Positions 2,200 to 10,329 of a stretch of DNA of 64,000 bases are shown here, one piece after another. Every line of letters begins with the position of its first letter. The stretch's first letter is position 1. The stretch is taken from the IMG/VR virus record IMGVR_UViG_3300049988_000245, positions 64,001 through 128,000 of that record, one strand, 5' to 3'. The stretch comes from a virus (Duplodnaviria > Caudoviricetes). Made by a program: the position numbers and the translations under genes. The notes beneath the pieces were generated by a model. The model did no database searches, was not told the origin of the DNA, and worked only from the letters and a program-made list of their open reading frames with translations.

Positions 2200-3326
2200 C
2201 CCAGCCGCATCCTCTCGATCTCGACCTCCTCATAGGTCATCGGCGTCCCATTCGTGGGTGCCGGTGACCCACCCTGGACCAAATGAGCCAACCGCGCGAG
2301 CGCCCCCATCAGATTGGGATCATTCACGGTCGGCTTCGTCAATACCGGGCTGGGCTTGAAGAACTTCGGTGGCTTGCGCTCGAACTTCTTGTGGTTCGGA
2401 GGCGGCAGGGCTGGCGAGTTCGGATCGAAGTTCTGGAACCCCGCTCCGTTGACGGCTAGATACGTGCCGTCATCGACCTTCTGCCAAATCTCAGCATGCT
2501 TGGATCGCGGCGCCGTCTTCAGGTCGCGGCGGATGTCCCGCATGACCTTGTCGGCCATCCCAAACTGCGACGGCGACAGCTTATGATCGTGGAACGACAA
2601 CGCGTCCCCATCACCATCGACCTCGACGATGAAGAAGTTGCGCTTCAACACCTGCCGGATGAGCCCGGCGAACAGCGACGCCTCCTGAATGCTGAAGGTG
2701 TCCTCCTGTAAGGCTAGCGACATCCCACGAACGGCAAACCCCAGCAGGTACTGCTCCGCTGTGCCCTCCCACTCCTCTGGCTCCTCCGCCGACGACGCCT
2801 TACGCTGCTCAGCGATAAAGCCTTCCTTGTGGATGATCGGGTAGTGGTGCCACCGACCACCGAACGACTCGCCATAGTAAACGCCCGGCATGAAGCAGGC
2901 GAACACCCCCACCTGCCTGGGAAAGGTTTCCAACCACGAGACGCGGTTGTGCTGAAATTCGCAGACCGCTCCGGCGCCGCAGTTCGAGTCCGGTAGGGAC
3001 GGTGCTCCGAAGGCGAAACGGTCCGCCCGGCCGTTCAGCAGCTTGTCCGCACCGTACGCGTTGATCCGGCGAGCCACCTCGGCATCCGCCAGCGCAGACG
3101 TGCGGTAGCAGCCCACGATGTGCGGCGCGAGCGCCGCCACAGGCATCTCCGCCTCGATCATCTCCCTGAGATACCAGTGCAATCCCTCATGACGCTTGGG
3201 CGGACGACCGCGCACGGCCAATTCAGCCGACCACCACGCCTCCATCTTTTTCCCACTGGATACGAACACGGTCCGCTTCGTCCGAGGGTCGCGGTACTCG
3301 TAGACGTACGCACAGTCCTGCATCAC
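2196..3326 (-). CDS. Hypothetical protein with degenerate LEM-3/GIY-YIG-like N-terminus
   Basis: YVYEYRDPRT..VFVSSG resembles YVYxYxDP..FYVGKG but lacks the canonical second motif. Confidence 0.6.
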   Translation of the reverse strand: MMQDCAYVYEYRDPRTKRTVFVSSGKKMEAWWSAELAVRGRPPKRHEGLHWYLREMIEAEMPVAALAPHIVGCYRTSALADAEVARRINAYGADKLLNGRADRFAFGAPSLPDSNCGAGAVCEFQHNRVSWLETFPRQVGVFACFMPGVYYGESFGGRWHHYPIIHKEGFIAEQRKASSAEEPEEWEGTAEQYLLGFAVRGMSLALQEDTFSIQEASLFAGLIRQVLKRNFFIVEVDGDGDALSFHDHKLSPSQFGMADKVMRDIRRDLKTAPRSKHAEIWQKVDDGTYLAVNGAGFQNFDPNSPALPPPNHKKFERKPPKFFKPSPVLTKPTVNDPNLMGALARLAHLVQGGSPAPTNGTPMTYEEVEIERMRLG

Positions 3327-3943
3327 CGAATCTCCTCGTTCGCACGGCTGAGGAGCAAACCAGCCACCGATCGTATGGCCGACCCGGTCGCTCGCAGCTT
3401 CTCCCCCAAAGGTACGGTAGGTTTAAACTCTTTCTTTTTAGAATAGAACTCTGCGTTAACAGGAGAGTTAATTTTATATCCCTTACCTTTGGGGGAGGTC
3501 ATCCGGGCGAGGCATTTTGCAGCAATCCAGGCGAACGTCGCCATGAAGTCGAGGCCGAACGTGAAGCGGATGGGGCGGCGCTTGATCCCATTGGGCATCG
3601 TCGGGGTGCGGGCGATGCGCTCGTACTGACCGGCCGGGTCAGGAACACGGTCGAGGAAGCCAATCGCCTCCAGCGTCTTCAGGGCGCCACGGATGCGGTC
3701 CTCGGACAGACCCAGGGTGGCGTTCCCCATGAGGGCACGACGATCGACCGGGAATGGGCGTTTATGCTTGGACGGGACCGCGTTCATGCGAGCGAGGAAC
3801 ACCGCCAGGATGTGGGCGGCCTCGCGGTTCTTGAAGCCTCGGAGTCGGACTTCGAGAAGTTGGAAGAGCTTGCCGGGCAGCTTATAGTTGCCCGATTCCC
3901 GAGCAGGATAGAATCGCAGGCCGTCGCGGGTGATCGGTAGCAT
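3323..3943 (-). CDS. Winged-helix protein of a Methylobacterium/rhizobial plasmid Rep-like family
   Basis: PFPVDRRAL..LGLSEDRIRGALKTLEAIGFLDR..RRPIRFTFG, recalled from alphaproteobacterial plasmid proteins. Confidence 0.6.
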   Translation of the reverse strand: MLPITRDGLRFYPARESGNYKLPGKLFQLLEVRLRGFKNREAAHILAVFLARMNAVPSKHKRPFPVDRRALMGNATLGLSEDRIRGALKTLEAIGFLDRVPDPAGQYERIARTPTMPNGIKRRPIRFTFGLDFMATFAWIAAKCLARMTSPKGKGYKINSPVNAEFYSKKKEFKPTVPLGEKLRATGSAIRSVAGLLLSRANEEIR

Positions 3944-4024
3944 AGGCGAAGATGGCTCCCTTGGATGAAGGCAGCCGTCTACAGAATGCACTTTTCCGGG
4001 CCTGTCAAAATAGCCTGTGCGCGG

Positions 4025-4158
4025 ACTAGGTTATTCGTCGCGAGGTATGAGTCAATTGTCGCGTTGAGCTAGGCGTTTTGTCGCGAGGTATGCGTGATTT
4101 GTCGCGCAATGCCCGAATCGTGTCTTTCCCGTCACACTGCGCGACGAATGACTCATAC
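4025..4158. repeat. Iteron-like array 1 (4 direct copies plus 1 inverted copy)
   Basis: TTYGTCGCG cores with GTCGCG at 4037, 4058, 4080, 4101 (21/22/21-bp spacing); inverted copy at 4140-4158. Confidence 0.8.
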
Positions 4159-4230
4159 TTGGTATAGGGGATTTGGCGCGCAATCAGATTCTCGAAGTCT
4201 CCGATAGTCATCGTAGGCGACGGGGCGGTC

Positions 4231-4236
4231 TAAATA
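4231..4236 (+). promoter_or_regulatory. Late promoter core TAAATA
   Basis: Upstream of the endolysin. Confidence 0.5.
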
Positions 4237-4267
4237 TTCTCTGAGCCAATCATCAGAGGATAAAACC

Positions 4268-8667: not shown

Positions 8668-9237
8668 TTACAACCACTTGATAATTGGTTGATCCAAATT
8701 TCCTGTTTCCCAAACGAACCATGCGAAAGCCAACATGCTGGACGATTTCGGCTTGTTCTCGCCATCGCGGTTCATTTTTAACCTGTACGTAAACACGTAA
8801 ACGGTTTTGGGAGGGAATTTTTCGAAGAACGCCTTTCGCTTCTTCCCTTCTAAGAACTGGAGCTTCAGCAGCATCGCCACCTTACCATCAGCCTGCGCGA
8901 GCGAATGCCGGACGAAACGCTCGGCATACTTGTAAGGAGGATTGGTGATGATGTGGTTGACCCGTCGAGACTCGTTGAAGAAGTCGAGCCCGCCTTGGCC
9001 GTATCCTCGGTCGATTAGGTCGGTCGCCAGAACGATGTGCCCGGTTTCTTCCAGAACCTTGCAGATCGCTCCATCACCACACGCTGGCTCCCACACAAGA
9101 CCTGGGAATTCCTCGACCGCGAGCAGCGCTTCCACGGCGTTCCGGGGCGTGGGGTAGAAGTCGTTCTCGGGGCGGCCTTTGGATGTGCCGGAAATGCTCT
9201 GCGCGCGACGCAGACGGATCGCTGAAGTGTCTTCCAT
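8668..9237 (-). CDS. Orphan DNA N6-adenine methyltransferase (phage type)
   Basis: DFYPTP, WEPACGDG (motif I), IITNPPY (motif IV). Confidence 0.9.
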   Translation of the reverse strand: MEDTSAIRLRRAQSISGTSKGRPENDFYPTPRNAVEALLAVEEFPGLVWEPACGDGAICKVLEETGHIVLATDLIDRGYGQGGLDFFNESRRVNHIITNPPYKYAERFVRHSLAQADGKVAMLLKLQFLEGKKRKAFFEKFPPKTVYVFTYRLKMNRDGENKPKSSSMLAFAWFVWETGNLDQPIIKWL

Positions 9238-9245
9238 TATAGCGG

Positions 9246-9251
9246 TATTTA
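9246..9251 (-). promoter_or_regulatory. Late promoter core TAAATA
   Basis: 9 nt upstream of the MTase ATG. Confidence 0.45.
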
Positions 9252-9321
9252 TTCCACCGCCTCAGGAGCAACCGATTATTAACCATTTTTCGGTAGACCA
9301 ATTTTCGTTCGACCATACCGC

Positions 9322-9361
9322 TTGACGTTCTCTCAAAACCGCGTATATTCAACTCATCAGC
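9322..9361 (+). promoter_or_regulatory. Early promoter (conserved motif)
   Basis: TTGACG-N16-TATATT-caactcATCAGC. Confidence 0.75.
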
Positions 9362-9399
9362 CGCATAGAGACGGCGCCAACACAGGAACGGATCACACC

Positions 9400-10329
9400 A
9401 TGAACACCGCTTTCACCGCCACCTCCGAGATCGCTCTCTCCCTCGCCGCTTCCGCTGCTGAGCGCGCCGCCCAGGCCACCCAGAAGGGCATCAAGGGGAT
9501 CATGACCGGCCGGTCGGACACCTTCCGGGTCAACCCGTTCGACATCGATGTGGTCGCTGGTTTCAACCTTCGCGGCTTCGACTCCGAGGAGGTTCAGGCC
9601 GACCTCGTCCACCTCGCTCAGGACATCAAGACCCGTGGCGTCCAGCAGAGCCTGAAGGTTCGTCTCGACAGCCGTGACAACCGCCTGAAGCTGGTCGATG
9701 GCGAGCGTCGTCTCCGGGCCACCATCTACGCGATCAACTTCCTCGACGCCTCCGACATCACCGAGGTCCCGGTCGTGCTGGTTCGCGGCAAGTCGGACGC
9801 CGACCTGATCGCCGAGCAGTTCGCCTCGAACACCGACGATCTGCGCAAGGACTTCAACGAGGTCGAGCAGGCCAACGGCATCCAGCGTCTGATCGGCTTC
9901 GGCTGGGATGACACGAAGATCGCCGCCCAGACCGGCCTCAAGATGGCCCGTGTGAAGCGTCTCGTGGCGATCCTCGAACTCCCCACGGTGGTGTCCGATC
10001 TGGTTCGTGCGGACAAGGTCTCGGCCACCTACGCCCTGGAGGTGGTGAAGAACTCGGCCAACACCGAGGCTGCTGTCGAGACCCTGGAGAAGGGCCTTGC
10101 GGTTGCTGCGGAGAAGGGCGGCACCAAGGTGATGCGCAAGCACGTCACCCGCGCCGAGACCCCGGCTCTCCCCGGCAAGGCGTCCCCCCGCACGGTCCTC
10201 AAGAGCGTTGCGGAGGACTTCAAGACGGGTGAGGAAGTCGAGTCCACCAACGATGGTGTGACCACGGTGGCCTTCCACTTCACCCCCGAGGTCGCGGCCC
10301 GGATCAAGGCGGCCCTCGCCGGTCTCTGA
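9400..10329 (+). CDS. ParB/Srx-family protein
   Basis: LAQDIKTRGVQQSLKV..LVDGERRLRA (ParB arginine patch), then HTH and C-terminal extension. Confidence 0.85.
   Translation: MNTAFTATSEIALSLAASAAERAAQATQKGIKGIMTGRSDTFRVNPFDIDVVAGFNLRGFDSEEVQADLVHLAQDIKTRGVQQSLKVRLDSRDNRLKLVDGERRLRATIYAINFLDASDITEVPVVLVRGKSDADLIAEQFASNTDDLRKDFNEVEQANGIQRLIGFGWDDTKIAAQTGLKMARVKRLVAILELPTVVSDLVRADKVSATYALEVVKNSANTEAAVETLEKGLAVAAEKGGTKVMRKHVTRAETPALPGKASPRTVLKSVAEDFKTGEEVESTNDGVTTVAFHFTPEVAARIKAALAGL

Follow-up and report, generated by a model that had tools for sequence, protein, structure and literature searches.

Within a 64,000-nucleotide stretch of a Caudoviricetes genome (the whole of which is called the window, and to which coordinates refer unless stated otherwise), a block of genes and repeats with the appearance of a plasmid replicon extends from a gene for a winged helix-turn-helix (winged-HTH) protein to a parB gene. 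Its central elements are rep, whose product resembles plasmid replication initiators, and arrays of short repeats (iterons) lying upstream of it (Table 1). The window covers bases 64,001-128,000 of a linear IMG/VR contig of 265,895 bp (IMGVR_UViG_3300049988_000245), which CheckV estimates to be 57% complete; the sequence is present in leaf and silage metagenomes, and no RNA run is among its listed holders. An earlier reading of the same DNA, hereafter the original prediction, saw in this block a plasmid-like replicon embedded in a T4-like jumbo phage and raised the possibility of a phage-plasmid.

An iteron-type initiator on a phage contig

The product of rep has no direct match in Pfam, PHROG or NCBIfam profiles. 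Its AlphaFold model is nevertheless of high quality (predicted local distance difference test, pLDDT, 93.8; predicted template modelling score, pTM, 0.91), and all 46 of its Foldseek matches in the PDB at E<=0.001 are iteron initiators (RctB domains 2-3, RepE54, complexes of Rep with the DNA-unwinding element, and Pi). Alignment of the model with VIA-align gave Z scores of 13.6 for RctB domains 2-3, about 12 for RepE54 and 11.3 for Pi, covering nearly whole target chains (about 95% of the RepE54 chains), and the score drops below that of these monomeric initiators for dimeric RepE (7.7) and for unrelated proteins (about 6). In the Swiss-Prot part of AlphaFold-DB the matches are TrfA, RepFIB RepA, Pgp2 and Pi, the TrfA alignment starting at residue 20 of the Rep model. 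The phage protein thus shares a tandem winged-helix fold with RepE of F, Pi of R6K, TrfA of RK2 and RctB of Vibrio chromosome 2 (Z 11-13.6 over 205-253 aligned residues), although identity in the structural alignments is only 7-15% and its long C-terminal helix (residues 322-380) lies outside the aligned range. The profile and fold comparison proposed in the original prediction therefore found the initiator fold, and the Rep-like initiator placed at 6175 was borne out as a two-winged-helix, iteron-type protein by the model, by Foldseek and VIA-align and by homology to IncC RepA.

The family to which Rep belongs is large, with 731 cluster representatives at E<=0.001 in an exhaustive HMMER search. 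Among 74 relatives, the Pfam profile Rep3_N touches 5 and RPA 2; Rep3_N does not match Rep itself. For the search for further loci, the 74-sequence alignment was too diverse, and a 10-sequence alignment yielded one additional IMG/VR locus only. By tblastn, Rep matches 1280 plasmid records, the bulk of them IncC plasmids, and none of 50,697 GenBank phages; megablast of the region against GenBank phages likewise gave no match. The best plasmid matches are carried by Methylobacterium aquaticum pMaq22A_2p (42.5% identity) and M. nodulans pMNOD02 (38%), and RepA of the IncC plasmid pSN254 is 32.5% identical over residues 27-249 (E 4e-21, tblastn). Compared with a related locus, L002, in which Rep is 95% identical, the ratio of nonsynonymous to synonymous substitution rates (dN/dS) of rep is 0.076, which points to strong purifying selection.

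The same contig encodes tail-fibre proteins, ribonucleotide reductase and a DnaB-type helicase closest to those of Agrobacterium phage Atu_ph07 (490 kb) and Sinorhizobium phage Phosso (469 kb), both at about 53% identity, and then to PA5oct-like phages. The presence of phage genes and Rep together on one contig recurs in several independent assemblies. In family searches of the record itself, the T4-type capsid (Gp23) and T4-portal genes are present as fragments only, and terminase, T4 tail tube, family-B polymerase and full T4 portal or capsid were not found. This and every other absence of a gene family reported below applies to a 57% fragment, with about 43% of the genome missing, and is not evidence that the phage lacks the family. 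Since the helicase is of the Atu_ph07 type and T4 genes occur only in pieces, the description "T4-like jumbo phage" is reasonable in the sense of Atu_ph07 but is only partly shown by the fragment. The best Rep relatives indicate that the host is probably of Methylobacterium type.

Iterons, the divided array and the skew switch

The two arrays of a shared iteron-like motif in the original prediction proved to be nine copies of one repeat of about 20 nt (consensus gTAtaGGnnaTTYGTCGCGcaatcga), with cores starting at 4034+, 4055+, 4077+, 4098+, 4148- and 4172+ in array A and at 5883+, 6004- and 6060- in array B. The 21-22 nt phasing of the first four corresponds to two helical turns. The 16-mer TAGGNNNTTNGTCGCG occurs four times in the contig, each time inside the arrays, and the full motif is found genome-wide only there. 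Arrays A and B are 90% and 88% identical to their counterparts in L002, against about 68% at synonymous sites of Rep, and the differences fall mainly in the central "nnn" spacer, a distribution that fits two-part recognition by the two predicted winged-helix domains. In the stretch of L002 equivalent to window 5991-6064 (L002:9817-9895), the core TTYGTCGCG is replaced in the two minus-strand copies of array B by one and the same variant, TTTGAAGCG, which may represent a second class of Rep site or a concerted change.

Wherever enough upstream sequence was available, the Rep relatives examined, both in phages and on Methylobacterium megaplasmids, are accompanied by arrays of a related repeat. 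Upstream of rep there are eight copies of AGGTATTTGTCGCGAAA in L009/L015, at least nine repeat copies in L011, about 16 copies of TATGTGATCYACGACGCGCG in L021 and, in the 589 nt available, two copies of the core in L022, while the corresponding repeats are GAGGTTTTCGGGGCGCGAT in pMaq22A_2p and GGGTTATTGCTCGCGCG, with a 21-nt period, in pMNOD02. Such repeats were not found in L001, an element that has a homologue of the winged-HTH protein and lacks Rep, and no homologue of that protein was found in the megaplasmid flanks examined. The repeats therefore follow Rep, and the winged-HTH protein was rejected as their binder.

Between array B and rep, the interval 6085-6135 reaches 72.5% A+T in 40-nt windows, at or above the 99th percentile of the genome. 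One of three copies of a ATTTTGGTCAA-type 20-mer (6105-6124) lies in this AT-rich stretch and the other two (4887-4906 and 5710-5729) lie within the inserted nuclease genes described below; they may be due to chance or represent a small promoter-like motif.

In L009 and L011 a single, uninterrupted array separates the winged-HTH gene from rep, and the two genes are read in opposite directions away from it. In the window and in L002, by contrast, three genes (M15-like, HNH and NaeI-like) lie inside the array; the insertion has a GC content of 0.52 against 0.60 in its flanks. The second array is thus a product of the insertion, which is most likely of the homing-endonuclease type. The two arrays are not an original two-array control design; they may act as one at present.

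The winged-HTH protein, P0007, was described in the original prediction as a second plasmid-type winged-helix protein. A winged helix is plausible, but the plasmid type was not borne out. On the record P0007 begins at M17 of the open reading frame (ORF); its model has a pLDDT of 69, and its matches to MarR/ArsR/SmtB-type folds are weak (E about 0.01). Neither P0007 nor the 376-aa and 327-aa proteins have a match in Pfam, PHROGs or NCBIfam. Homologues of P0007 with 38-44% identity are encoded divergently upstream of rep in L009 and L011, and its dN/dS against L002 is 0.42.

Between strains, the interval 2337-5309 is highly variable; it is replaced by unlike sequence in a relative present in the assembly X10 that is otherwise mostly 85-95% similar; in L002 the winged-HTH protein is 60% identical, the 376-aa protein 31% and Rep 95%. 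The trio of winged-HTH gene, iterons and rep also occurs on a different phage-like contig with a terminase nearby (L011:7352-10010), where, in place of parB, the genes behind it encode a PDDEXK nuclease, an HTH/HipA toxin-antitoxin pair and a Uma2 nuclease.

The composition of the whole contig directs attention to the replicon-like block. The curve of cumulative GC skew descends over the first 67 kb to a global minimum at 67,407 (window 3,407) and then climbs until 240 kb, where it is highest. Its V-shaped trough has its floor at window 3000-7000 (67-71 kb), extending from the winged-HTH gene to rep. A crude gene call (407 genes) was used to regress per-gene skew on gene orientation and side of the breakpoint. 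The effect of side persists once orientation is taken into account (t=4.8 for all positions, 2.6 for third positions), and among 89 breakpoints tried the best was 67,500. When 1-kb blocks were permuted, the observed range was reached in 0.015% of trials (p=0.00015). This is the pattern that a fixed bidirectional origin produces, and the position of the minimum on the module gives independent support to a Rep-primed origin. The skew maximum lies at genome position 240,488, outside the window. If this is the terminus, the arms would measure about 173 kb each and the genome about 346 kb, smaller than the approximately 466 kb implied by CheckV.

Table 1. Features of the replicon-like block and of the genes on either side of it (window coordinates)
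Feature	Coordinates	Strand	Remarks
VWA-domain protein and 452-aa protein	506-2199	+	just upstream of module; weak collagen-repeat match (452-aa protein)
376-aa protein, no family match	2196..3326	-	from ORF list; directly downstream of winged-HTH gene with 4-nt overlap; fast-evolving
Winged-HTH protein P0007, 206 aa	3323..3943 (probable extent)	-	divergent from iterons; conserved partner of rep in phages
Iteron array A, six copies	4024..4190	.	four direct at 21-22 nt, one inverted, one direct
Three-gene insertion splitting the iteron array	4268..5874	.	Pfam and PHROG matches
M15-peptidase-like protein, 139 aa	4268-4687	+	weak match; first gene of insertion
HNH endonuclease	4671-5285	-	second gene of insertion
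NaeI-like nuclease	5308-5874	+	third gene of insertion
Iteron array B, three copies	5873..6069	.	adjoins rep
AT-rich stretch, candidate DNA-unwinding element	6085..6135	.	probably overlaps rep promoter
rep, 381-aa iteron-type initiator	6175..7320	+	two winged-helix domains
YunG-like small phage protein	7338..7781	+	Pfam PF24591, E 5e-5, under cut-off
327-aa protein, no family match	7782..8765	-	between rep and methyltransferase, likewise in related phages; counterpart in L009
Small adenine DNA methyltransferase, S-adenosylmethionine-dependent	8668..9237	-	phrog_799 at 1e-64; divergent from parB
parB	9400..10329 (probable extent)	+	ParB_N and HTH_ParB; sigma-70-like promoter at 9322-9349

The methyltransferase gene has a feature score of 0.98 to methyltransferase clusters, is 61-63% identical in L009 and L021 and has a dN/dS of 0.037. 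Outside the block, the window contains a full-length gene for a Kup-type potassium transporter (16437-18407, minus strand; K_trans 2.4e-172, with K_trans_C), an unusual auxiliary gene for a phage, which is kept near the rep-parB block in the relatives L002 and L022.

Relatives and descent of the module

The order VWA and 452-aa genes, winged-HTH gene, iterons, rep, methyltransferase and parB is common to the window and L009, a contig of 236,747 bp (ENA ERZ858510 NODE_56), and L021 and L022 share most of it in the parts that their contigs hold, with Rep identities of 40-63%. The VWA and 452-aa genes are kept in L009 and L021, and the 452-aa protein is found in part in Phosso and Atu_ph07; these two genes are useful backbone markers of the position of the module. 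In Phosso the neighbouring backbone gene is present, the module is absent and unrelated genes follow.

In a maximum-likelihood tree of Rep, a single clade (support 100/100) unites all phage Reps with the two megaplasmid Reps, and the two kinds are mixed in it, the Rep of the L021 phage being sister to that of pMaq22A_2p (100/100). This mixing implies that the replicon is of plasmid descent and that exchange or replacement of rep, at an unchanged site in the phage backbone, took place more than once. The plasmid-like replicon of the original prediction is thus real and plasmid-descended: its Rep family occurs in 1280 plasmid records and in none of the GenBank phages searched, and its closest relatives reside on Methylobacterium megaplasmids.

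Those megaplasmids, pMaq22A_2p and pMNOD02, carry the closest Rep relatives (38-42% identity, annotated as hypothetical) behind iteron-rich upstream regions of about 900 nt. Unlike the phage, they are true megaplasmids with catabolic genes, insertion sequence elements and, in pMNOD02, partition genes of the RepA/RepB type; no homologue of the winged-HTH partner or of the phage ParB was found in the flanks examined, and the replication role of their Rep is putative. Iterons of IncA/C plasmids are located downstream of rep. In the phage they lie upstream, with no DnaA box or ParA found, and the replicon is a jumbo phage and not a conjugative plasmid of the IncA or IncC group such as pSN254 or pVCR94; the resemblance lies in the sequence similarity of RepA and in iterons of about 19-20 nt with the same two-part layout. 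The repeat itself is yaTRTGGGnnngcTGCACG in IncA/C plasmids (PMC7433901), compared with TAtaGG-nna-TTYGTCGCG here.

Atu_ph07 and Phosso (470-490 kb) are the nearest cultured relatives of the phage, with a helicase about 53% identical and the shared backbone gene beside the module. They differ from it in having no homologue of Rep, and they are not among the records with a ParB match.

Initiators that act on iterons are well known from plasmids and occur in P1 and other phage-plasmids. Defined origins account for only a part of replication starts in T4, and to our knowledge little has been established about how jumbo phages begin to copy their DNA. Literature searches retrieved no paper describing an iteron Rep in T4-like or jumbo phages. 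The occurrence of this Rep family in phages at all is new (it is absent from PHROGs v4 and from the GenBank phages searched), as is its fixed and conserved place in the genomes of one clade of jumbo phages related to Atu_ph07. The splitting of an array by insertion, and compositional evidence suggesting that the genome replicates from this replicon, are further novelties.

Origin, episome or passenger

The reading preferred here, with a probability of roughly 0.5, is that Rep and the iterons together form a functional origin, and that bidirectional replication of the jumbo phage genome starts mainly from this block. If Rep works like RepE, TrfA, Pi and IncA/C RepA, its monomers would bind the iterons of about 20 nt through their two winged-helix domains, one domain reading the TA(T/G)RGG half and the other the TTYGTCGCG half. 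Binding would open the adjacent AT-rich stretch, where Rep could recruit a DnaB-type helicase, either that of the phage or that of the host. The distal array A and the inverted copies may titrate or pair Rep, controlling initiation and transcription of rep, and the divergent winged-HTH protein may be an accessory regulator. The module would have come from plasmids of the host group and now be stably placed in a clade of Atu_ph07-like phages, in which a homing-type insertion of three genes probably split an original single array in two.

Several points weigh against this origin. The fold and family relationship of Rep, its co-occurrence with iterons, the conservation of the block and the skew switch are matters of observation, whereas iteron binding, melting, helicase loading, the stage of the life cycle at which the origin would be used and replication itself are all inferred. 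A contig of 57% gives only part of the skew curve; the switch could be mimicked, or in part produced, where gene blocks of different composition meet, and the genes at 80-130 kb are mostly head-on to the fork that the origin predicts. The AT-rich stretch may be just the rep promoter, and neither intergenic region contains a DnaA box (TTATCCACA or TGATCCACA, with at most one mismatch), an element that many, though not all, iteron origins have. Atu_ph07 and Phosso have no homologue of Rep and lack the module, so phages of such type can replicate without it. The mixed Rep tree, with its apparently repeated exchange or replacement of rep, counts on the same side.

An alternative, which is entertained only tentatively, is that of a phage-plasmid or carrier state, in which the Rep-iteron replicon, copy control by two arrays and ParB would let the genome persist between lytic bursts as an episome of low copy number in hosts of Methylobacterium type, in the manner of P1 or SSU5. 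The Rep family is otherwise a plasmid one (1280 records, no GenBank phage), and its nearest relatives, on megaplasmids of the host group, are intermixed with phage Reps in the tree; against this, the relatives of Rep in isolate genomes were found only in non-phage contexts. Iterons are in two arrays in P1 and F, as they are here, but the two arrays of the phage result from the insertion and its relatives have a single one. The replication-shaped GC skew implies many rounds of theta type from one fixed origin, and the phage carries a host-like housekeeping gene in that for the Kup transporter.

The ParB-like gene predicted at 9400 was confirmed by phrog_1033 (1e-35), by HTH_ParB above its cut-off (30.7 bits against 22.6) and by a GERRLRA box, with ParB_N at 25.2 (cut-off 26.3) and TIGR00180 at 48.8 (cut-off 58.45). 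It is syntenic with rep in L002, L022, L009 and L021, and its retention next to rep in these four lineages, as a ParB of the partition type whose arginine box is intact, favours an episome. However, this ParB is paired with the small methyltransferase in every lineage, a pairing that is common in virulent phages, and ParB homologues are frequent as lone genes in phages, virulent ones included. Lone ParB matches have been taken as no sign of a phage-plasmid (preprint 10.1101/2024.12.31.630880). The 189-aa neighbour of parB was considered as a substitute for ParA and rejected, being the small methyltransferase. The search for a ParA and a repressor suggested in the original prediction found no ParA (CbiA, AAA_31) over cut-off and no S24 repressor in the fragment, nor was a tyrosine integrase found there. 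As a candidate parS, no perfect palindrome of 14 or 16 nt recurs in the genome, and none lies within window 2000-12000. The winged-HTH protein could be a regulator. The signature "Rep plus iterons plus Par" is thus present in Rep, iterons and ParB but is incomplete as that of a phage-plasmid, since no ParA or parS was found, lone ParB is common in virulent phages and the pairing with a methyltransferase is usual in phages.

P1 illustrates the difference. It has a complete ParABS system, an immunity system and a lytic origin of its own. The present phage resembles it as a phage genome with an iteron-type initiator, two iteron arrays (incC and incA in P1, next to RepA) and ParB; in contrast to P1, with its ParA/ParB/parS, none of those three systems was found here, and the genome is several times larger, of the Atu_ph07 type, with arrays derived from an insertion.

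Copies in host assemblies, which the original prediction had also suggested looking for, were not encountered: a pattern scan of 185,579 species-representative genomes (one genome per species, two peptide patterns) found no copy of the phage. Its matches were in M. indicum and M. frigidaeris only, as Rep relatives in plasmid context that share only Rep with the phage. All holders of the phage sequence are metagenomes or metagenome-scale assemblies, which is a further point against an episome. Small-share holders labelled as organisms are large assemblies; two of them (X10 and X12) contain a relative that is mostly 85-95% similar, at low depth, and another (X14) holds a few short pieces of phage sequence only, and these three say nothing about an episomal state. 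The two readings offered in the original prediction have fared differently, a Rep-primed origin having gained support from GC skew while a phage-plasmid or carrier state is the less probable of the two. The fuller claim, that an Atu_ph07-type jumbo phage of an estimated 350-470 kb is a true phage-plasmid whose iteron replicon has been exchanged with megaplasmids of its Methylobacterium host, is regarded as doubtful.

It is improbable that the module is instead a passenger or weapon, that is, a selfish module of plasmid derivation or an incompatibility device directed at host megaplasmids, with the phage genome replicating by other means. Its absence from the cultured relatives, the homing-type nucleases inside it, the exchange of Rep with plasmids and the strong variation of neighbouring genes between strains would all suit such an element. 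Its position, however, is kept down to 40% identity of Rep, rep appears to be under strong purifying selection with constrained arrays, and the GC-skew minimum falls on it. Moreover, the iterons differ in sequence from those of the megaplasmids, so cross-interference is unlikely. Least probable of all is a purely regulatory region, in which the winged-HTH protein or ParB would use the repeats as operators and the Rep-like protein would be a transcription factor and not an initiator. In its favour, iteron-type Rep proteins are known to repress their own genes as dimers, the Foldseek matches include a structure of dimeric RepE on its operator (PDB 2z9o), and the winged-HTH gene is transcribed divergently from the arrays. 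Yet the arrays accompany Rep on plasmids in whose flanks no winged-HTH homologue was found and are absent near the winged-HTH homologue that stands without Rep; 8-16 copies over 400-900 nt are typical of origins, not of operators, and the skew switches at the locus.

A main origin at the rep-iteron block would mean that a clade of giant phages possesses a sequence-defined origin and an initiator that can be cloned and tested. If this is true, it would be the first mapped origin for the Atu_ph07-like group; phages and megaplasmids of one host group would swap replicons, and the block would provide a ready-made backbone for Methylobacterium vectors. Should the phage persist as a plasmid, the size and taxonomic ranges of phage-plasmids would widen considerably: it would far exceed in size every phage-plasmid known to us and be the first in the T4 superfamily.

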